Shown: one piece after another, positions 12,427-53,391 of the stretch
Layout: every line of letters starts with the position of its first letter
Numbering within the stretch: the stretch's first letter is position 1
Position numbers and translations under genes: made by a program
From: a virus
Taxonomy: Duplodnaviria > Caudoviricetes
IMG/VR virus record: IMGVR_UViG_3300031993_000041
Coordinates: 1-64,000 of that record
Length of the DNA: 64,000 bases
Reading direction: 5' to 3' (one strand)
The notes under the pieces: model-generated
The model's database searches: none
The model's input: the letters and a program-made list of their open reading frames with translations, nothing else
What the model was told of the DNA's origin: nothing

Positions 12427-13941
12427 TTATATATTAAAAATTGTTTTTTCATTCTTAAAACTCTGGCCGTCGTAAAGCTTCTTGCGCTCTGCGGCGTGCC
12501 TGTAGCTTATACATCCGGAATATAAGTTGTCGCAAATATCGTAGATATATGCGTAATCTTTGTCGTCGCCTTTTCTCAAAAGCCTTCCGACAGACTGCAG
12601 AATTATTGTCGGCGACTTATACGATTCAGTAAGTATGAGGTAGTTGAGGCTGGTAATGCTTATACCGGTGCTGCATGTACCGTATGTCGCTATTATCACG
12701 GAATTTTTCGACTGCTCGACCTGCTTCTTTATTGCGTCACGCTTCTCTACCGTCGTCTCTCCGCTGATGACGAGCACATTCCTTTTCCTGAATACGTCAC
12801 GCATACGGTCCCTCATCTTTTCAAGGTACTTTATATGCTGGCACAATATCAGCACGTTTCCGTTGCATTCTGAAACGAGTTCTATGATATGAGCAAGCCT
12901 CTTATCGTCTTCGAGTACATATTCCCTTTCAGCCGTCCATAGCTTTGTGCTCACCTGGCGCTTGTAGTCTTCGTCAGCTCCTTTCAGCATCTTTTTGATA
13001 TTCTTCATATCATTAAGGTTTTCATCGTTCCTCTTCTTGTAATCGAGAACCCTCTGGTATATCATACAATCCGAAATATATCCGGAATCCTGGAGGTCTT
13101 TCGCCTTAATGTTTATGACAAGAGGTCCGAGGACGCATGCGGTATGAAGAGCCGGGGAATATTTGAAGTCAAGGTCTATCGTTCCAGACATCCCTATCTT
13201 ATACCTGCAGCTGCAGTTCTCGACTATCTTTGTCTCAGACTTGCAAATAATTTTATGGCATTCATCTATAACCACGCAGTCAAACTTGTTATAATAATAT
13301 ATGTCTTTCGTCGCCATTGTCTGATATGTACTGACAACGACGTTAGCCTGGTCTGAAATATCTTCTTGGCCTGCATAAAGTCCGCAAAACCTGAATTTTC
13401 CAGCTATGAAGCTGTCGAAATCTTTTTTGGCCTGCGTCACGAGTGATGTCGTTGGCACGACCATAAGAATTCTTTTCGCTCTTCCGGTATCAAGTAAGTA
13501 AGAAAATATAAGAAAGGCTATAAGTGTCTTTCCGGCACTTGTCGCAAGCATTGTCGTGCAGCGCTTGTATTTCACGGCCTTGTGAGCAGCCTCTATCTGG
13601 TATTCCCTTGGTTTGAAGTCGGAATCCTTCATAAGGTTTTCCACGTATTTCTTGAAGTCGTCGTATTCTATCATATCTATAGAAGGCTTGACGACATCGA
13701 GAAGGTTCGACTGAATGCCGGCATTCTTAAGGACCTTGTTAAGGTACGACCAGCTTCCGAAAGGTATATATCTTCCGCTGATATACTTGAAGTTGCCGTC
13801 CCATGACCCCCTCCTGTATGCCATAGAATACTTATAGGCCTTTGTTGGCTTCGTATACGCGCCAAGCAAAAGCTTATACTCGAACTGAGAGCATTCCTCT
13901 ATTTCTATAAAGTTATCCCCTAATCTATGCCTAAACTTCAT
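12427..13941 (-). CDS. uvsW: UvsW-like superfamily 2 DNA helicase
   Basis: PREYQ, LATSAGKT, VVIDECH, GMSGT, ATYGTCSTGISI, QSVGRLLR. Confidence 0.92.
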   Translation of the reverse strand: MKFRHRLGDNFIEIEECSQFEYKLLLGAYTKPTKAYKYSMAYRRGSWDGNFKYISGRYIPFGSWSYLNKVLKNAGIQSNLLDVVKPSIDMIEYDDFKKYVENLMKDSDFKPREYQIEAAHKAVKYKRCTTMLATSAGKTLIAFLIFSYLLDTGRAKRILMVVPTTSLVTQAKKDFDSFIAGKFRFCGLYAGQEDISDQANVVVSTYQTMATKDIYYYNKFDCVVIDECHKIICKSETKIVENCSCRYKIGMSGTIDLDFKYSPALHTACVLGPLVINIKAKDLQDSGYISDCMIYQRVLDYKKRNDENLNDMKNIKKMLKGADEDYKRQVSTKLWTAEREYVLEDDKRLAHIIELVSECNGNVLILCQHIKYLEKMRDRMRDVFRKRNVLVISGETTVEKRDAIKKQVEQSKNSVIIATYGTCSTGISITSLNYLILTESYKSPTIILQSVGRLLRKGDDKDYAYIYDICDNLYSGCISYRHAAERKKLYDGQSFKNEKTIFNI

Positions 13942-32508: not shown

Positions 32509-34074
32509 CTATTTATTTTGAATTATGTTAAAGAGGTTATCGACATCTGCGAACATTACAGGGTTTATGTCTACGGTGTCGTATGTCATCTTCAGCGAGC
32601 ATTGAACACTTTCGGATTTCAGGTTTGTGTTAACGTCATGAAGTCCGTCAAAGCCGGTTTCGATAATCTTGCATCCAGTCAGATATACCTCTACTACCGA
32701 TATATGCTCCGACAACAGCTTCAATACATAATCATTAAAGTCTTCGTCGACGCCGTTGATATTCGCTCTCCTGTCAGTTGTCTTATTCATAAAGTCAATC
32801 AGGCTTTTTCCTATCATAGACCTGTTGTTTCTGAATGACCTGAAGTCATAGATGAATAAAGACATATTGAATTTCCTGAGATTCGACGGAATTTTCTCCC
32901 TTTTATATTTCGTATCTCTTACTGCTTCATTGTAAGACATAAGCATCCTCGTAATCGTCATTTTCACGTCTTCAAGCAGTTTCAGCGTCAATTCATTCTT
33001 CATCTCACCTGAAAGGTTGTATGCGGCGTTAAAAATATCCTGTACTCCTTCCACAGATGTTATGACATATTGCCTGTTGTCATTGATATTCTTTATAGTC
33101 TGATAAAACCTTATAAGGTTCATTACGGAATTCGGAGAACTAAGCACTTGTCCGTCATTCGTTTCAGGCGTTCCGCTGAGCAAACTTTTTGTATTCGACG
33201 CCTTGTCTACTTCTTGCTGCTTAAGCTCAGTATATATATTAAGTTCTTTCCTGAGTTCTTCTATTCTGTTGTCAAGAGCGGCAACCTCATTTTTAGCAGA
33301 CTCTATCCTTGCCTTATACATACTGTATTGCTCAGGAGGCACAGCGCTCGCTGCAGCTCGGAGGTCTCTTGTTTCCGAAAGAACGTCAAGCGTGTCAGTT
33401 ATGCCAGATATTGATACCTCTGCCTGCTTTATCTGATATAATGAAACAAGGTCAAGGGTATCGTCTCGTAGGTCTTCAAGACGCTTAATTTCTTTTTCCA
33501 GATTTTTTATGATTTGGTCATATTCGTCTGCTTTCGAGCTAACTATCTGAGGTTCAGCTGCTTTGTCCTTACTGCCGCTGACATATACCATGTCAGAAAG
33601 ATAAAGATATTCAATAGCGCCGTACGGTTCGACATAAAGCTCTCTTTCTCTTTTTCCAAGTATCGGACCGACAAGCTTCTTCTGGATTTTCTCCATAAAA
33701 TTAGTGCCGAAAGAATTATTATAACCATCGCATAGGCTCGCAAGCTTGCTTGACACTATACGTGATTTGTCGGTATAATCGTCTATTCTTTCAAACAGAT
33801 AAAGGTCCTTAAACAGAGGAGAGGTGTCGAAATCTATGTAAAACGAAAACCCTGTAAGCAAAGGGTCTGTCATTACGATGTCGTTAACAAACTTGTTCAA
33901 GTCTGAACGCGTATGTATCGAAGTCGAATTAAGGCCTATGCCGCCTGTATAATTACGAACGAGTGATTCAGCGTATTTGCTTTCATATTCCCTGTTAACT
34001 TCGTTCTTTACAGACTCAGCTTGTTCCTTCGTCCTCTTTGTGTCATCGTATGTCCGTTTTTCAAAAATTCCCAT
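32509..34074 (-). CDS. Probable tail-tube-fold/baseplate structural protein with central coiled-coil insertion
   Basis: DPLLTGFSFYIDF N-terminus; ITSVEG...LEDVKM.I...P.NLRKFNMSLFIYD C-terminus; TATAAATA at 34101-34108. Confidence 0.45.
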   Translation of the reverse strand: MGIFEKRTYDDTKRTKEQAESVKNEVNREYESKYAESLVRNYTGGIGLNSTSIHTRSDLNKFVNDIVMTDPLLTGFSFYIDFDTSPLFKDLYLFERIDDYTDKSRIVSSKLASLCDGYNNSFGTNFMEKIQKKLVGPILGKRERELYVEPYGAIEYLYLSDMVYVSGSKDKAAEPQIVSSKADEYDQIIKNLEKEIKRLEDLRDDTLDLVSLYQIKQAEVSISGITDTLDVLSETRDLRAAASAVPPEQYSMYKARIESAKNEVAALDNRIEELRKELNIYTELKQQEVDKASNTKSLLSGTPETNDGQVLSSPNSVMNLIRFYQTIKNINDNRQYVITSVEGVQDIFNAAYNLSGEMKNELTLKLLEDVKMTITRMLMSYNEAVRDTKYKREKIPSNLRKFNMSLFIYDFRSFRNNRSMIGKSLIDFMNKTTDRRANINGVDEDFNDYVLKLLSEHISVVEVYLTGCKIIETGFDGLHDVNTNLKSESVQCSLKMTYDTVDINPVMFADVDNLFNIIQNK

Positions 34075-47295: not shown

Positions 47296-47298
47296 TTG

Positions 47299-47371
47299 CT
47301 GTCGCTCAAGGTCTCGAACCTTGACATTCCTGGTCCAGAGCCAGGCGTGTTACCAATTACACCAAGCGACA
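47299..47371 (-). tRNA. tRNA-Gln(CTG)
   Basis: TGTCGCT/AGCGACA acceptor, CCTGG-CTCTGGA-CCAGG anticodon arm, CAAGG-TTCGAGA-CCTTG; no encoded CCA. Confidence 0.95.
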
Positions 47372-47406
47372 ATGAAAAGATTATATCTTATTTCAATGCT
47401 CTCTTC

Positions 47407-47463
47407 AAAAATTCAGTCTTAAATATCCGCCTCACGGCAGGTGAACTTGGCTGAATGTTCTTT
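47407..47463 (-). ncRNA. Small structured RNA motif, copy A (copy B at 51502-51560)
   Basis: AAGAACA-P1-RAGTTCA-CC(T)GCC-GTGA-GGCGG-ATATTTAA-P1'-U-tract; covaries with copy B. Confidence 0.65.
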
Positions 47464-47559
47464 CAAGTAGAATTATCTCAAGAATCAATCAAAAATCTTA
47501 TATAAAAAACAACATTTTACAGAAAATCCTGTAAGAAATCCAAAATATTTTCATACTTG

Positions 47560-47633
47560 TGTGTCAGGCTGGATTCGAACCAGCGACTGCCGGCTCCACA
47601 AACCGGTGCTCTGCCAACTGAACTACTGACACC
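47560..47633 (-). tRNA. tRNA-His(GTG), encoded G-1 opposite A73
   Basis: G-GTGTCAG/CTGACAC-A, CCGGT-TTGTGGA-GCCGG, GCTGG-TTCGAAT-CCAGC. Confidence 0.92.
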
Positions 47634-47639
47634 ATGTAG

Positions 47640-47715
47640 TGGGCCCAGCTGGGCTTGAACCAGCGACCACTTGATTATGAGTCAAGCGCTCTAACCTATA
47701 CTGAGCTATAGGCCC
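47640..47715 (-). tRNA. tRNA-CAT, probably Ile2 (lysidine type)
   Basis: GGGCCTA/TGGGCCC-A, CTTGA-CTCATAA-TCAAG; the body resembles Ile2 rather than elongator Met (inference). Confidence 0.85.
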
Positions 47716-47803
47716 GAATTGCCGTCGAAGGATTTTACATCTGACTACCGTCAGACACTGGGCTGAGCGACCTTTCCCATTGTACCCGGAATACAAGTCT
47801 GTG

Positions 47804-47889
47804 CGGAGAAAGCAGGACTTGAACCTGCACGCCTTACGGCTACTGGAGGTTTAGCAAACCTCTTCCTTACCAATTAGGATTATTTCTCC
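47804..47889 (-). tRNA. tRNA-Ser(GCT)
   Basis: GGAGAAA/TTTCTCC-G, GAGGT-TTGCTAA-ACCTC, long variable arm. Confidence 0.95.
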
Positions 47890-48021
47890 ATGAAGATTTT
47901 ATTAAACAATACCGCTTCACGTACGGCAGTTGCAGTTCTAATTAAGAACCCGACGGAATTCCGTGACGATGCGAACATCCGAATTCTCTCAAAGCCTTTC
48001 GCACAGGCTGTTGAGGTATCG

Positions 48022-48095
48022 CGGGGGTGGGAGGATTCGAACCTACGGCCTAATGATTAACAGTCATTCGCTCTAACCTGCTGAGCTACACCTCC
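48022..48095 (-). tRNA. tRNA-Asn(GTT)
   Basis: AATGA-CTGTTAA-TCATT; one mismatch each in the acceptor and T stems. Confidence 0.9.
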
Positions 48096-48110
48096 TTATA
48101 TTTGTTTTTG

Positions 48111-48192
48111 TAGGATTGAAGAGAATCGAACTCTTACGCCTTGCGGTACCAGGTCCTTAGCCTGGCGCGTCTACCAGTTCCGCCACAATCCC
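48111..48192 (-). tRNA. tRNA-Leu(AAG)
   Basis: GGGATTG/CAATCCT-A, CCAGG-CTAAGGA-CCTGG, class II variable arm, AAGAG-TTCGATT-CTCTT. Confidence 0.93.
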
Positions 48193-48275
48193 ATGTAACG
48201 GCGCTTTTATTATTTTCTCATGCAGATTCGCCGAAATCTATAACTGCATTCAGCAAGGCGCTACCTTGTCATTCG

Positions 48276-48350
48276 TCGTGATAGATGGATTCGAACCACC
48301 GACCTTCTCGTTATCAGCGAGATGCTCTAAACCACCTGAGCTACATCACG
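48276..48350 (-). tRNA. tRNA-Ile(GAT)
   Basis: CGTGATG/TATCACG-A, TCTCG-CTGATAA-CGAGA. Confidence 0.95.
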
Positions 48351-48363
48351 GTATCCAATATAG

Positions 48364-48438
48364 TTGCGAGGATGGGACTTGAACCCATGACCTTCGGTTT
48401 ATGAGACCGACGAGCACTCCATCTGCTACCACCTCGCT
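48364..48438 (-). tRNA. Initiator-type tRNA-fMet(CAT)
   Basis: Unpaired 1:72 (A:A), A73, TCGGT-CTCATAA-ACCGA; fMet-like body. Confidence 0.88.
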
Positions 48439-48604
48439 GTGAACTACCACAAACTAAAGATTTGCTGGCTTCTTGCTTCACAGCCGTTGCTTTGACTAAT
48501 GTCAAAGTCTTACATCAGCTCCACAAGTGTACTCGACAGTCCCTGCCGAGGTTTTATACTCTTATTAACTGAGTTTACTTTTAGGTTTTACTTGTACAAG
48601 ATTT

Positions 48605-48633
48605 ATAGTACAAAACAATTACCAATTTGTCAA
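48605..48633 (-). promoter_or_regulatory. Sigma70-like promoter TTGACA-17nt-TACTAT upstream of the fMet-His tRNA block
   Basis: Exact TTGACA, 17-nt spacer and TACTAT, overlapping TATAAAT. Confidence 0.5.
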
Positions 48634-48741
48634 TGTACTTTTATTATTTATATATGAAAATATATTATTTTTCGAAAATACACGCAATTCTTCCAAGAAG
48701 CTAAATATTTTTGGTTTTCTCGCTAAAAATTATATAAAATG

Positions 48742-48766
48742 ACAGGATTCTTTAGCAAGACCTGTC
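48742..48766 (-). terminator. Putative terminator hairpin
   Basis: GACAGG...CCTGTC inverted repeat followed by ATTTT on the minus strand. Confidence 0.45.
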
Positions 48767-48931
48767 AGCTTGCCCGGCAAACGTTCCGGCTGCAATTTCT
48801 TACAGATTTTCGATTTCCTGCTACATACGCCTCACAGGAATTATTTCACCAACAGTTTCTATAAAATAAGATGTTCATTATGGCAAATTAAACATCTGTG
48901 TTACTCCCGGCGCCGGTTTTACACTCATACT

Positions 48932-49210
48932 TTACTTGATTTCATCAATATAAACTATGCAATCAAATACATCGTCAGGCATATCGTTAACAAGATTGTC
49001 AACTACCACACGGTATCCTTTCATATACATAATATCGCAGAAATCAGAAAGACTTCTGAAATAATACTTCCATTCGCCATGGCCATTGATACCTCCTGTT
49101 AGATGAACCTTCAGAGAACCGTTTTCAGCATTCGTTTCAGAAATGCTTAATTTCGAGCCAGCCTGTATACAGGCTACTTCGATGTCACAATGTAATTTTT
49201 GTAAATCCAT
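48932..49210 (-). CDS. Hypothetical 92-aa protein embedded in the RNA island
   Basis: Protein-like composition, AT-rich leader, ATG start. Confidence 0.6.
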   Translation of the reverse strand: MDLQKLHCDIEVACIQAGSKLSISETNAENGSLKVHLTGGINGHGEWKYYFRSLSDFCDIMYMKGYRVVVDNLVNDMPDDVFDCIVYIDEIK

Positions 49211-49352
49211 ATTAAAAAGTTTTAGTTAGCTTGAAAAATGAGCAGCAATCATCATAAACGACGTGCAAAAAGTTCAATCTGCTCCAGCGGCGACCTACAA
49301 ACCAGATGCCTGAGAATATAGCCATCGCTGCTGTTACTTTTCTTTTTGACAA

Positions 49353-49425
49353 GTTGACTTCCTGGATTCGAACCAAGATAGCAGCCGTTTTAATAGCACT
49401 GTCTTAACCGTTAGACGAAAGTCAA
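49353..49425 (-). tRNA. tRNA-like gene with non-pairing anticodon stem (pseudo or undetermined)
   Basis: TTGACTT/AAGTCAA, GTCT/AGAC D-stem and CTTGG-TTCGAAT-CCAGG intact; anticodon arm GTGCT-ATTAAAA-CGGCT does not pair canonically. Confidence 0.75.
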
Positions 49426-49516
49426 AAAACCAAAGAGCTACCTGCAAATAACCTTTGGAAAACCACTAATGACATCAGTGAGCTTGCAGACTTTGATGGC
49501 ATTTACCAAGTTTTTG

Positions 49517-49588
49517 TACCTCAGCCGGGAATTGGACCCGAATTACATGGTTGAAAACCATGTGTCCTAACCATTAGACGACAGAGGC
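49517..49588 (-). tRNA. tRNA-Glu(TTC)
   Basis: CATGG-TTTTCAA-CCATG; T-loop TCCAATT (C55 variant). Confidence 0.88.
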
Positions 49589-49740
49589 AGAAAAAGTTCT
49601 TTAACTCATTTGCACATTTAACGGCTACTTTTAAGAACTTCCGGCCTGAAAGTAAGCTTTCAGGTCTCTTATAAGAAATTTTGCCTTACTCCAGTCACCA
49701 CTTCCGGCCCGGGTGAAGGCCCCTGGAGAGTGTTTCGTTG

Positions 49741-49813
49741 TGGACACGGGGTGACTCGAACACCATCTTCCTGAGTGCAAATCAAGCGCATTAGCCAATT
49801 ATGCTACCGGCCC
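49741..49813 (-). tRNA. tRNA-Ala(TGC)
   Basis: CTTGA-TTTGCAC-TCAGG, G3:U70, A73; two acceptor mismatches. Confidence 0.85.
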
Positions 49814-49825
49814 AAATTAAATTTA

Positions 49826-49937
49826 CTGCGTCAGCGGGATTCGTACCAAACATTGTGTGACTGCTCTTCCGGATTATTCTCGCACTCCCACGTCCGGCAA
49901 ATTGTGGGTTGTAGGTCAGCCATTCCCACATAACGCA
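49826..49937 (-). ncRNA. Oversized tRNA-like RNA E1 (112 nt)
   Basis: TGCGTTA/TGACGCA acceptor, TGTGGG/CCCACA D-position arm, CCGGA/TCCGG extended arm, weak T-arm with TACGAAT loop. Confidence 0.45.
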
Positions 49938-49942
49938 ATATT

Positions 49943-50133
49943 AGAAAAGAGTTTTTCGACCTCACTCTGCAGAGCCTGCACAGCTGCTACCCTGTTTCAA
50001 CGGGGATTTTCAGCGGAATCCCTCACACTGGCGGCTTACAATCTATCATGCCGACGATTTATGCTGTCTGTTTTAATTCTGACAGCCAGAAGAATTCCCT
50101 TATGCGCAGGGATTTAGATGAGTTACCTTTTCT
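49943..50133 (-). ncRNA. Unclassified multibranch structured RNA (~190 nt)
   Basis: Closing AGAAAAG/CTTTTCT; CCCT/AGGG, CTGG/CCAG enclosing CTGTC/GACAG and CGGC/GCCG, GGGATT/AATCCC. Confidence 0.45.
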
Positions 50134-50167
50134 TTTGTAGGAGGAACCACCAAGAAATAAACCTACC

Positions 50168-50283
50168 TGGGTGATGCTTGAAGGAATCGAACCTTTGTAT
50201 TGGATGAACTTTAATCATTACAGAGGGTATTACCCTTAGACCATAGAAGTTCATCCAGCTTGCCCACTTTGCAAAAAGCATCA
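50168..50283 (-). ncRNA. Oversized tRNA-like RNA E2 (116 nt) with long anticodon-position arm and possible encoded CCA
   Basis: TGATGCT/AGCATCA-C-CCA, TTGC/GCAA D-stem, perfect 11-bp TGGATGAACTT/AAGTTCATCCA, AAGG-TTCGATT-CCTT. Confidence 0.75.
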
Positions 50284-50287
50284 AAAA

Positions 50288-50414
50288 ATCACCGTGCTAT
50301 CCTTACACTTTATGCCGCTATCTTTTACTGCTCTATAGCAGTCGTGCTTTACTCATATTACGTAACTATGAACACAGTTTCACGACCATTGCAGACTCGA
50401 ACTGCACTTGTGAC
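50288..50414 (-). ncRNA. T-arm-first (permuted, Y-RNA-like) tRNA mimic candidate
   Basis: GTCAC - TGCAG-TTCGAGT-CTGCA - GGTCGTG/CACGACT closed helix - GCTAT/ATAGC - GTGAT. Confidence 0.35.
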
Positions 50415-50424
50415 TTTATTTTTG

Positions 50425-50768
50425 TGGAGGTGCGGAGATTCGAACTCCGGTCCTGCAAACCGTCAATACAAGATATTATTTACATGTTTAGGATAACAGA
50501 TTAAGGTTCTGTTCCAAAACCTCTGCTCTCGCAGCTCCACCACCTGATTTAATCTAACCAGGAAATCTTAAAGGCTATTAAGCAGCCATTCTCATTGCTA
50601 CTGGAGCGATGCGGATGTCTGCTACTCTGTTTGCGAAGTCTACAACCTTGTTGCTTACTTTGCTGAAAGTATTTTTTACCTTTATTTTCTGACCGTTGTT
50701 TTAGGTGAACCGTTCAATCACCACATGTACCTCATACCACTAATCTACAGTCAAAACCATACACCCCC
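50425..50768 (-). ncRNA. ssrA: tmRNA
   Basis: 5' GGGGGTGTATGGTTTTGAC; 3' GGAC-CGGAG-TTCGAAT-CTCCG-CACCTCC-A with G3:U70; tag frame ending MRMAA-TAA-TAG. Confidence 0.95.
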
Positions 50769-50869
50769 AAAAAAGTTTGTGAAGCCCTACCACATAGCCA
50801 ATTTAATAATGAGAATCGAACTCATGTTTCCCCATAGTTCCAAAATCCATAGAGAAATATGGAAATTGT

Positions 50870-51190
50870 TTATAATTTAATAATTATCGGGTGAACTACA
50901 ACACCCTCTATCCCATTGTTGAAAACCTTTGGGAATGCTTTTCTCATGATGTTATAACTTCCGTTCACGTCGGCGTTTATCTTGTTCCCATTTTCTGAAA
51001 CAAACAAGCCACGACGAACACGCTTGCCTTTATAAACATCATGCTTTTTAATTTCTTCCAAATCAAGGAAACTGCACTTGGATGTGTAGCTTTCCTCGTT
51101 TGTAATTACTTTTATCCCCACTTTTTCGCATTTGTATGAAATCATATCAACAAATCTACTGTGGGGTCTAAAGCTCACAAACTTATTCTT
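50870..51190 (-). pseudogene. tnpB: 5'-truncated IS200/IS605-family TnpB remnant
   Basis: PHSRFVDMISYKCEKVGI.V...EESYTSKCS.LD...GKRV.RGLF...INADVNGSYNI...GIEGVVVHP; homology stops near 51190 and no REC/WED or RuvC-I part is present. Confidence 0.88.
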
Positions 51191-51501
51191 AAAATTAAAA
51201 ATCCTATACAGCCCTCGACAGTATTCGCCCTGTTGTAGCCACCCTTTGGTCTCAATACTCTTAGTATCACGCGAGTAGGTCGAGCGTAAAAGACACATCC
51301 TCACAGATTATTATTTTCAACCCTTCATCCTCGAATGCTTTGAAGGAAAAACCTGCTCCACCTCGGATTTTTATAACATTTATCTCGTTGTTGTTAGTTT
51401 ATGGACAAACTTTTCCATTTCCCTACAACATACTAAAAATTCCTTATGTCAAAGAACTTATTTATAGTATCCGCAAAAATAGCAGAGATTCTATACGTCT
51501 T

Positions 51502-51560
51502 AAAAAATGGACCTTTAATGTCCGTCTCGCGACAGGTGAACTCGGTCCAAGATGTTCTTT
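51502..51560 (-). ncRNA. Small structured RNA motif, copy B (copy A at 47407-47463)
   Basis: AAAGAACA-TGGACC-GAGTTCA-CC(T)GTC-GCGA-GACGG-ACATTAAA-GGTCCA-TTTTTT. Confidence 0.65.
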
Positions 51561-51639
51561 GGAAACAAAACCACAAAGTACATAATTATGAAATCGTACC
51601 ACACTATGTTACCATAGCCAGCAAAACGCGATAAAAGAA

Positions 51640-52170
51640 TTACACTTGTATCATCCGCTAAAAGCAGACTTAGGTCCAGCCTATCGTGATTTATATGTCT
51701 GTTGTGGTCTGGAGCACACCATCACCATATCGAAATTCTTGCAAGTGAACATAATAAAACTTATTGTATCGTAGTTTAATGTGGGTCACGCGACCACTCC
51801 AAGCTCATTTTACTATGTTAATTTCAACTTAGGCAATCTGCAAGGGCTCGCCTTACAGACGTTCTGCTATTCAATATATTCGCAGAATGTCTTCCGTCTG
51901 CTCTCTACACCTTTATGAGCTACTTGACAAGTCAAGCTGGTATCTGTCATATTCCGATTTCGAGTGCTTCTCATGATATGCCTATTTTATACACACTCTT
52001 CTCCATTAGACTACTTGCTCAATTTAGCTCGGTGTTATCTGCGACTTATTTGTTTGTCTTTACAGCGATTTTTCATCTTTACAGGGCTTAGCACCTTGAC
52101 AGACTTCCACCGAATTTGGAAGATTCTACTCCGGCGTTTCCACCGGAGCACACAATAAATCTATTTCAAT
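51640..52170 (-). ncRNA. Large ornate ncRNA (~500 nt), ROOL/GOLLD-class candidate
   Basis: No credible ORF; closing GATTTAT/ATAAATC and TTGTG/CACAA; long-range TCTGTCA/TGACAGA, AGCTCAT/ATGAGCT and GGAG/CTCC; hairpins CTCCGGTG-GAAA-CGCCGGAG, CTTCCA/TGGAAG, CAGACG/CGTCTG, GGTC/GACC. Confidence 0.6.
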
Positions 52171-52185
52171 GTACTCTTCATTTTG

Positions 52186-52324
52186 AGCGTACTTGAGGAT
52201 TCGAACCTTCTGATACAAGTTAGTCGACGTCTCATGTATCATTGAATAGTTAAGCTGCCCACAACATATATCAGAAATTTCGAAGGTACTTCTGTAAATT
52301 TCATCAACCTATTCCAGCATACGC
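52186..52324 (-). ncRNA. Oversized tRNA-like RNA E3 (139 nt)
   Basis: GCGTAT/GTACGC, ~70-nt D-position domain closed by GAATAG/CTATTC, TGATACA/TGTATCA arm, GA(A)GG-TTCGAAT-CCTC. Confidence 0.7.
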
Positions 52325-52332
52325 ATAATATA

Positions 52333-52462
52333 GTGCCTACCCAGGGATTCGAACCACCGTTCCATTGCTTTTATGTACAATATTAAACAATAGAACCTTC
52401 AAAGCCTTCACGTAAATAAACTTAAGCGCGCCTCATTTTATTTGCGTGAGAAGGAGTAGACA
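52333..52462 (-). ncRNA. Oversized tRNA-like RNA E4 (130 nt)
   Basis: TGTCTACT/GGTAGGCA, D-position domain CCTTC/GAAGG + TCACG/CGTGA + AAATAAA/TTTATTT, TTCTATTG/CAATGGAA arm, CGG(T)GG-TTCGAAT-CCCTG. Confidence 0.75.
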
Positions 52463-52487
52463 TAATTTCAATGTACTCTTAATTTAG

Positions 52488-52661
52488 AAACATAATGAGG
52501 AGTCGAACCTCTACCTCCGTCTAATACATCTGGGAAGATTTGCAACTCTTCGCAGAATCCATAGACCTCAGTATCACCCTACCCGTATCTTAGCACTGCC
52601 TTCCTCGAATACCGCGAATCTCTTCAGGCGAGCCACACTTACATACGTCGTGAATTATGCC
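52488..52661 (-). ncRNA. Oversized tRNA-like RNA E5 (174 nt)
   Basis: GGCATAAT/ATTATGTT, D-position domain TCAC/GTGA + CGTAT/ATACG, arm TAC/GTA + GTCTA/TAGAC + TCTG/CAGA + GAAGA/TCTTC, GAGG-TTCGACT-CCTC. Confidence 0.72.
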
Positions 52662-52702
52662 GTGGGATAAATCATTACATCAGAGCCTTGCAAAACGTCT
52701 TA

Positions 52703-52900
52703 TTGTCAAAACGTATGGAGTCGAACCATATTCTTCCATGTCCTTTCATATCGTGGTCCTTCTATATTGGATGACGGTCCGTACTAAAAAGTTTTGCAAT
52801 CACTTTGTTTCCAGAAGCCGGAAGAAATTCGCGAATCTTCATTTCACGATACGGGATGTTCTGCCAGTTAAACTACAATTATCGTCAGACAACCCTGACA
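52703..52900 (-). ncRNA. Oversized tRNA-like RNA E6 (~198 nt)
   Basis: TGTCAG/TTGACA, canonical D-arm TA-GTTT-AACTGGC-AGAAC-A, >100-nt anticodon-position domain closed by TATCGTG/CACGATA, perfect TATGG-TTCGACT-CCATA. Confidence 0.7.
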
Positions 52901-52970
52901 TAATGATTATATTTCAATGTACTTAAAATCTTTAATTATCTGTCTCACGACAAATGTACTTTATTTTTCG

Positions 52971-52989
52971 TATATAAAAAACAACGTTT
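52971..52989 (-). promoter_or_regulatory. Recurrent promoter-like motif AAACGTTGTTT(T/A)TTATATA (representative copy; others at ~13959, 18779, 23050, 25515, 27089, 45680, 47499, 55957, 58249, 60706)
   Basis: 11 near-identical copies, all on the minus strand and just upstream of gene or RNA starts. Confidence 0.8.
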
Positions 52990-52998
52990 CTACAGAAA

Positions 52999-53391
52999 TT
53001 ATTTATTTTTTTCATTTTTTTCTTCCTGCAACGGTATTCCGCCGTTTATGGTGTCTGTACCTGTTGAAGTATATATGACTCCCCTTAGCGGACAATTTAA
53101 GCAATCCTTAAACGGATTCGTGCAGTCGGTCCAATCCTTACAGTTCTTTGGAAACGTTCTAATCGAAGGATAATCAATTAGAGGCGGTTTGTCGTCTACG
53201 ACTATTTTCCTAAACTCGGTTTTTGCTATTTCCGAATCTTCGAAATCCTTCGTGGTATATTCGATTCTGTCTCGGTCATCGCATTTCATAATAAATTCGA
53301 GGACGTCTTCAGGATTATTAAAGCAGTCAAGATATTCTTTCTTCTTGCTTTCATCCTTTTCAAAAACTCTGTAAACAATATAAATCTTCAT
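52999..53391 (-). CDS. Hypothetical protein with C-terminal Cys cluster
   Basis: CKDW.DC.NP.KDCLNCP. Confidence 0.65.
   Translation of the reverse strand: MKIYIVYRVFEKDESKKKEYLDCFNNPEDVLEFIMKCDDRDRIEYTTKDFEDSEIAKTEFRKIVVDDKPPLIDYPSIRTFPKNCKDWTDCTNPFKDCLNCPLRGVIYTSTGTDTINGGIPLQEEKNEKNK

Follow-up and report, generated by a model that had tools for sequence, protein, structure and literature searches.

The stretch of DNA considered here, positions 1 to 64,000 of the IMG/VR virus record IMGVR_UViG_3300031993_000041 (all 64,000 nucleotides (nt) of which are referred to as the window), carries within an island of transfer RNA (tRNA) genes at least four conserved genes for non-decoding RNAs of 116–174 bases that keep the top half of a tRNA, and in which the D and anticodon positions are filled by unrelated hairpin domains. 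Six elements, designated E1 to E6 (Table 1), had been presented in a preliminary description made from the sequence alone as a family of at least six oversized tRNA-like RNAs. The claim of that description that real RNAs with a tRNA-like acceptor/T-module are encoded here is borne out by a conservation that exceeds that of synonymous sites and by covariation in the stems. The tRNA-scaffold observation applies to E2, E4, and E5, each of which is confirmed as a tRNA-like element, and more weakly to E3; it does not extend to E6, which is without a convincing acceptor, or to E1, which is not tRNA-like, and the count of six cannot be upheld. In the explanation favoured here, E2, E4, and E5 are probably genes for non-decoding oversized tRNA-like RNAs of the kind represented by rnaC of bacteriophage T4, as are, less cleanly, E3 and, in part, E6.

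Table 1. Elements E1–E6 and associated features of the RNA island (window coordinates)
Feature	Position	Strand	Remarks
E1, conserved structured RNA just upstream of tRNA-Ala	49826..49937	minus	80% identical in the relative G001
E2, 116-nt tRNA-like RNA	50168..50283	minus	Rfam 21 bits; fold z −3.7; acceptor p ~0.015
E3, 139-nt RNA, rod-like alternative fold possible	52186..52324	minus	closing-pair variants; 92–94% identity; z −3.7
E4, 130-nt tRNA-like RNA	52333..52462	minus	closing stem covaries; clean T-stem in the relative L101
E5, 174-nt cloverleaf-like RNA	52488..52661	minus	consensus fold of 5 variants; 96.6–99.4% identity
E6, structured RNA	52703..52900	minus	consensus fold of 6 variants
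Promoter-like motif AGTACATTGAAAT, copy 1, heads the E6–E5 unit	52911..52923	minus	exact copy
Promoter-like motif AGTACATTGAAAT, copy 2, heads the E4–E3 unit	52465..52477	minus	E4 begins 2–3 nt later
Promoter-like motif AGTACATTGAAAT, copy 3, heads a ~800-nt non-coding unit (52160–51344)	52163..52175	minus	exact copy
Orphan T-arm hairpin directly after the tmRNA gene	50390..50406	minus	5-base-pair stem, TTCGAGT loop
11 tRNA genes	47298–49813	minus	ARAGORN and Rfam
tmRNA gene	50422–50768	minus	Rfam 86 bits; ARAGORN
RNA island context: 11 tRNA genes and tmRNA	47298..50768	minus	ARAGORN, Rfam

T-arms, closing helices, and inserted domains

The T-arm word GGTTCGANTCC, which is the same as that of the phage's own tRNAs, occurs 17 times in the 64-kilobase (kb) window when up to one mismatch is allowed, as compared with 2.8 occurrences expected. 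All nine exact copies lie on the minus strand at 47.5–52.7 kb, within the RNA island, and five of them are found outside of real tRNAs, one each in E2–E6. A scan for 7-nt T-loops with at least three flanking pairs identified T-stems of 5 base pairs (bp) in E6, 4 bp in E5 and in E2, and 3 bp in E3, and missed E4 and E1. In E2, E4, and E5 the closing helix abuts a T-stem of 4–5 bp to form a 12–13-bp stack like that of the tRNA top half (8+4 bp in E2 and E5 and 8+5 bp in E4, with 7+5 bp also occurring in relatives); a closing helix stacked in this way on a T-arm (about 12 bp, with a UUCGANU loop) is thus present in these three elements, partly present in E3, and missing in E6 and E1. As had been claimed in the preliminary description, none of the elements possesses a 7-nt anticodon loop, and all six lie on the minus strand, in the same orientation as the 11 tRNA genes and the gene of the transfer-messenger RNA (tmRNA), with a spacing that matches the tRNA array.

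In the consensus folds of E3–E5, the D position is taken up by a large hairpin and the anticodon position by a long one, and there is no variable loop. E5 folds as a four-way junction in which an 8-bp acceptor and a 4-bp T-arm meet a domain of 80 nt at the D position and an arm of 62 nt at the anticodon position. In E4, the 8–9-bp closing stem is followed by a hairpin of 41 nt, an 11-bp arm carrying a 16-nt loop, and the T-arm, whose stem, initially described as bulged, is a clean 5-bp stem in relatives (L101), the bulge not being conserved. In E3, a 6–7-bp closing stem and an 11-bp arm are accompanied by a weak T-arm. The three elements are in general unrelated in sequence, as had been stated, with the exception of the last 47 nt of E3 and E5, which together with the trailers are 83% alike. 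In E2, the acceptor is of 8 bp, the D-stem (with GG in its loop) and the T-stem are of 4 bp each, CCA is encoded, and the anticodon arm is replaced by a perfect 11-bp helix with an apical domain. E6 has a hairpin at its 5′ end, a D-arm of tRNA type, a long branched arm, and the T-arm, and the normal D-arms attributed earlier to E2 and E6 are indeed present in both, the D-stem of E6 undergoing a U-G to C-G change between relatives. E1 differs from all of these: fewer than 3 bp flank its TACGAAT loop, so that there is no T-stem, and it is closed by a long stem; two compensatory pairs are seen relative to G001. E1 is a hairpin-closed, conserved structured RNA and not a tRNA mimic.

The acceptors were assessed by the complementarity of the 7 nt following the T-stem, as compared with shuffled upstream sequence, which is a test of low power. 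The matches are individually modest, with p values of 0.015 for E2, 0.04 for E4, 0.05 for E1, 0.09 for E5, and 0.2–0.3 for E6; the test gives no support for E3 or E6, and the acceptor pairing originally proposed for E3 is not the best match in it. Fold z-scores are −3.7 for both E2 and E3, −3.2 for E4, and −1.9 for E1.

Of the searches that had been suggested as a check, that of Rfam returned no match above threshold for any of the elements. E1 and E3–E6 match no Rfam family either at the gathering score or at E-values up to 10, and all six elements remain below the gathering score of 29 for tRNA (RF00005), E2 reaching 21 bits with a 49-nt insert at the place of the anticodon loop. ARAGORN calls E2 only with an intron assumed; it then names a tRNA-Phe (anticodon AAA), the supposed intron being 36 nt long and in a position that is not the canonical one, and at relaxed thresholds it produces forced, arbitrary calls over E5 and E6. 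These calls speak for a possibility raised already in the preliminary description, namely that the elements are precursor tRNAs with intron inserts that are spliced to ordinary decoding tRNAs, which the remaining evidence makes very improbable. Across 49200–53100, no group I intron and no other ribozyme was matched in Rfam at E-values up to 10; the insert of E2 continues the anticodon stem as a perfect 11-bp helix, without a bulge-helix-bulge motif; and E3–E5 give no cloverleaf after any single excision. The ligase RtcB was not found in either of the two partial genomes searched (32% and 49% complete), and bacteria are not known to possess a protein-based pathway of tRNA splicing.

Conservation, covariation, and competing folds

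Relatives were retrieved via the 130-residue protein encoded beside E6, which yielded Logan, ENA, and JGI contigs (L016, L101–L104, L107, and L017) from independent samples that align across E6–E3. At the four-fold degenerate sites of eight genes, the window is 75% identical to L101 (352/470). The identity to L101, L016, and L107 is 96.6–99.4% for E5, 92–94% for E3, 86–88% for E4, and 83–87% for E6, and the motifs and trailers are 100% identical. With 83–99% identity as against 75% at four-fold sites, E3–E6 are therefore under purifying selection and, as judged from these sequence divergences, are selected RNA genes and not decaying pseudogenes. A pseudogene origin, in which tRNA genes had been broken by insertion or recombination in an unstable tRNA island and had lost any function, would accommodate the remnants seen in the island (the orphan T-arm after the tmRNA gene, a decayed 3′ piece of E2 in L101, and an E1 interrupted by the remnant of an insertion sequence (IS)), the absence of E4 and E3 from L107, and the presence of TnpB insertion sequences at different places in each relative. 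It is nevertheless an improbable account of the elements, since the conservation test disfavours it for E3–E6, the substitutions in stems keep the pairing, and conservation extends equally to the inserted domains and the tRNA-like ends, with E5 being nearly invariant.

Beyond these contigs, a blastn search of the region against 50,697 phage records gave nothing other than a tRNA-Ala match and a TnpB match, and three flanking proteins searched against viral contigs gave no close relative. Searches with a tmRNA word and with a T-arm-plus-motif pattern returned G001 as the sole relative, a metagenome scan yielding 70 matches, all of which except G001 were unrelated; blastn detects no E3–E6 in G001.

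Between the close relatives, several helices change in a manner that maintains pairing. In the closing stem of E4, a U-A pair is changed to C-G and U-G to U-A twice, and in its hairpin A-U is replaced by G-C in two variants, next to three one-sided changes. The end pair of the closing stem of E3 is G-C, A-U, and G-U across three variants, and in E5 the end pair of the acceptor goes from G-U to A-U, with little else changing. Both the T-stem and the D-stem of E6 are real, as indicated by pair changes from U-A to G-C and from U-G to C-G, and its 9-bp arm is preserved through one-sided changes. When the tRNA-like structure is imposed on E4, 98% of the cells pair, with 12 extra pair types as compared with 2–7 in slid controls. 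Measured against minimum-energy folds of the window alone, the L016 substitutions break 15 pairs, as compared with 21.3 under random placement (p 0.03), and in the T-loops changes occur only at the position that varies in tRNAs. Real as this evidence is, it is thin, given how closely related the compared sequences are.

A different structural interpretation sees the elements as small structured RNAs whose UUCGAA "T-loop" is paired inside a long rod; tRNA would then not be mimicked, and the T-arm word would only be left over from an ancestry in tRNA genes. In the RNAalifold folds, the T-loop of E3 becomes part of a 17-bp helix with a UUCGAA that lies upstream, the partner that it also has in the single-sequence minimum-energy fold of this element, and the T-loop region of E4 pairs with the upstream UUUGAAGG. 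In the E4 T-loop, an A to U change is also accompanied by a change from U to A upstream. This apparent covariation is, however, located in an indel-bearing stretch with an ambiguous alignment, and a rod does not sit well with the exact 11-nt T-arm word being kept in five otherwise unrelated elements, with T-loop changes restricted to the position that is free in tRNAs. In the folds of E5, E2, and the elements that L101 and G001 carry of their own (see below), the T-arm hairpin stays free and stacks on the closing stem. On balance, the rod is unlikely, with a small but appreciable chance of being correct.

It has to be noted that a number of results weigh against the reading of the elements as tRNA-like RNA genes. 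RNAalifold prefers the T-loops of E3 and E4 paired with an upstream complementary stretch; the T-stem of E3 is of 3–4 bp only and is separated by a gap from the closing stem, so that the two do not abut. In E6 the proposed 5′ acceptor strand forms a conserved hairpin of its own, and no convincing acceptor is left, the match being at chance level (p 0.2–0.3) and 2 nt away from the T-stem. E5 (z −0.3) and E6 (z +0.4) fold no better than shuffled sequence. The relatives are 83–99% identical and the covariation comes from few events, the covariation score of E4 being reached by 41 of 500 shuffles, and for E2 there is no homologue with which it could be tested, other than the decayed 3′ remnant in L101. 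CCA is encoded in E2 only, and a covariance model (R1) built from five Tevenvirinae rnaC genes gives no match to E1–E6 at E-values up to 10.

Motif-headed units, turnover, and the surrounding island

The 13-nt motif AGTACATTGAAAT is present in the window in three exact copies, one each ahead of E6, E4, and another stretch that is non-coding. Its core is confined to the RNA islands and to the RNA strand, with four copies in this record and three in G001, and it is 100% conserved at the unit boundaries in L016, L101, and L107. Neither a sigma-70-type promoter nor an intrinsic terminator was found at the unit ends, and we infer that the motif is a promoter. The third unit (51344–52160, minus strand) opens with a hairpin that covaries between relatives and is 77–86% identical to its counterparts; weak matches to it occur at 64.6–65.2 kb of G001, also behind the motif, and Rfam gives no group I intron match for it at E-values up to 10.

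The composition of the array differs between relatives. L107 is without E4 and E3, with the junction lying in the 47-nt repeat common to the ends of E5 and E3 and with motif copy 3 following directly after E5. In L101, most of E2 is replaced by a different 100-nt element (12898–12997), which scores 35.8 bits with the Rfam tRNA model; its variable arm is 34 nt long, and a tetraloop stands where an anticodon loop would be expected. An IS remnant interrupts E1 in L101. G001 possesses its own 138-nt element (32853–32990) with a 7+5 top half and two long hairpins. The features that are new here are thus a 13-nt motif that is found only in the island and heads its units, and elements that are swapped, deleted, and interrupted between close relatives.

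The favoured explanation, that of tRNA-like RNA genes of the rnaC kind, suggests a route by which such RNAs could be made. Bacteriophage T4 makes dimeric tRNA precursors, and because of this precedent the E6–E5 and E4–E3 units may be expected to be transcribed as dimeric precursors as well. Since RNase P, RNase Z, and the CCA enzyme recognise the acceptor/T minihelix, this part of the elements would be recognised by the host RNase P, 3′ trimming enzymes, CCA-adding enzyme, and T-loop modifying enzymes, with the host tRNA enzymes cutting out and stabilising each RNA. The variable cargo domains would then be the working parts, binding some host or phage partner. A role as decoys against tRNA-directed host defences would fit the observed turnover. 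In its boldest form, which we regard as rather unlikely, this leads to a fast-evolving cassette array, in which each unit has its own promoter and one or two top-half RNAs with differing cargo, and in which recombination at the T-arm, trailer, and motif sequences that the units have in common adds, removes, and exchanges units in the course of an arms race, the RNAs serving to draw off, as decoys or sponges, host defence nucleases directed at tRNA or other proteins that bind tRNA. If that were true, T4 species 1 RNA (the product of rnaC) would gain a function too. One element (E5) is nearly invariant and elements come and go as units between strains, and the defined units, the candidate promoter, and the natural deletion variants are material for experiments. 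For annotation, it is of practical relevance that tRNA finders miss such elements or miscall them as intron-containing tRNAs.

Two orphan T-arm hairpins, which were not part of the preliminary description, are also found on the minus strand of the island, one directly after the tmRNA gene (Table 1) and the other at 50809–50825, just past the IS remnant, with a 5-bp stem and a TTCGATT loop. No upstream acceptor partner was found for either of them. Other tRNA-like elements occupy the position of the first hairpin in relatives, and it is probably the remnant of another tRNA-like element; both look like leftovers of recombined tRNA-like elements. Directly after the tmRNA gene of G001 there are two degenerate tRNA-Glu-like genes (32625–32687 and 32779–32847; Rfam 27.7 and 31.7 bits), with poor acceptor stems or anticodon arms, which are intermediate between true tRNAs and the oversized elements.

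Within the remainder of the island, the tmRNA is 90–95% identical in L101 and G001, and the tag predicted for it by ARAGORN is unusually long, with 33 residues ending in MRMAA. A tRNA with an oversized anticodon loop of 8–9 nt is conserved in the window (49353–49425, minus strand), in L101 (13903–13975), and in G001 (32992–33066); ARAGORN gives it no name, Rfam scores it at 33–41 bits, and it could be a frameshift-type or other non-standard decoder. The interval between E2 and E1 (49938–50167, minus strand) is non-coding and without a T-arm; because it is 92% identical in L101 and partly kept in G001 (79%), it is likely to be another structured RNA. A C-terminal TnpB remnant of 144 residues (Pfam Cas12f1-like_TNB) is located at 50870–51304 on the minus strand, and related loci lie in L016 (4033–5292) and L101 (8102–9912, 13291–13480, and 14139–15401). 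The relatives carry full-length TnpB or IS607-type copies in differing places in and around the RNA island, and one L101 remnant lies inside E1. The small proteins encoded next to the elements match no Pfam or PHROG family, and a search of the two partial genomes (32% and 49% complete) for a CCA-adding enzyme gave none.

As for the genome itself, the window is part of an 88.9-kb record with a CheckV completeness of 32%, is densely filled with open reading frames under the standard code, and encodes a family B DNA polymerase, a UvsX-like recombinase, and helicases. Genes identical to those of the window are found on metagenome contigs of 236–239 kb, and the source is therefore a large T4-like uncultured phage. 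At 52950–52957 on the minus strand, approximately 35 nt upstream of motif copy 1, TACATTTG exactly matches TAnnTTTG, the −7 promoter box of Bacteroidota, which hints that the host may be a member of this group.

Comparison with T4 rnaC and other known RNAs

With canonical or intron-containing tRNAs (RF00005) the elements share the identical T-arm word, the orientation and spacing of the array, and, in E2 and E6, normal D-arms, and they differ in having neither a 7-nt anticodon loop nor an intron family or bulge-helix-bulge, with only E2 approaching the model (21 as against 29 bits) and E3–E6 giving no match. The tRNA-like domain of tmRNA is likewise an acceptor/T module without an anticodon arm, and a true tmRNA is encoded in the same island; the elements, however, have no message region or pseudoknots, and the proposal that they are parts of tmRNA is not supported, as only stray partial matches to tmRNA models were obtained in Rfam.

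A further group of non-decoding RNAs that copy the acceptor/T/D region of tRNA, with 100–150 nt, is that of the bacterial and phage Y-RNA-like tRNA mimics (YrlA) that bind Ro/Rsr proteins. YrlA RNAs are handled by tRNA enzymes. Genes for a TROVE protein are known from some jumbo phages (PMC7824862), a precedent which, together with the TnpB remnant within the island, would allow the elements to be seen as Y-RNA-like, tRNA-mimicking partners of a Ro/Rsr-type protein or as guide RNAs of the neighbouring TnpB. There is, however, no Rfam match to Y-RNA-like families, and no TROVE gene was found in the two partial genomes (32% and 49% complete). YrlA RNAs end in the Ro-binding stem and not in an acceptor, and E3–E6 share no sequence with the IS copies and are present with or without a nearby IS. 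Partnership with Ro/Rsr or TnpB is regarded as very unlikely.

The closest parallel is offered by T4 species 1 RNA, which has been known since the 1970s, i.e., for approximately 50 years, without a known function. Its gene, RNAC (rnaC), and RNAD are part of the T4 tRNA region, rnaC giving rise to a stable RNA, and reviews describe the roles of both as unknown (PMC3014915, PMC9697503). In NC_000866, rnaC spans 139 nt (70908–71046) and is found with rnaD at the end of the tRNA cluster; rnaD (species 2) was considered as a model for the elements and rejected, as it is without a T-arm. In its fold (z-score −4.6), rnaC has a 65-nt hairpin at the D position and one of 10 bp at the anticodon position, together with an acceptor-like stem and a 5-bp T-arm whose loop reads UUCGAAU. 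Homologues were found in 748 phage records, and in four other Tevenvirinae genera the gene lies between tRNA genes with spacers of about 6 nt; the consensus fold of T4 rnaC with these four homologues contains 13 covarying pairs. The statement in the preliminary description that no named family has this plan therefore does not hold, rnaC and its Tevenvirinae homologues having the very plan that was described for E3–E5.

The differences between rnaC and the elements concern descent and arrangement. The R1 model detects no homology, its best match in the window being the odd tRNA (49352–49433, 12.9 bits); the stems here are of 8+4 or 8+5 bp as compared with 7+5 in rnaC, and CCA is encoded here, in E2 alone. 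Several mutually unrelated elements are present here in one island, in two-element units behind a private 13-nt motif. Both, on the other hand, lie within a phage tRNA cluster, on the tRNA strand and with short spacers, and belong to the length class of 110–200 nt; both have a closing helix on a T-arm, large D-position and long anticodon-position hairpins, and no anticodon or variable loop, and in both the helices covary. The elements thus share the design of rnaC but are not demonstrable relatives of it. The plan as such is already known from T4, and the elements are further examples of a known puzzle; that several unrelated RNAs of the same design are found in a distant phage suggests a general phage strategy and not an oddity of T4.

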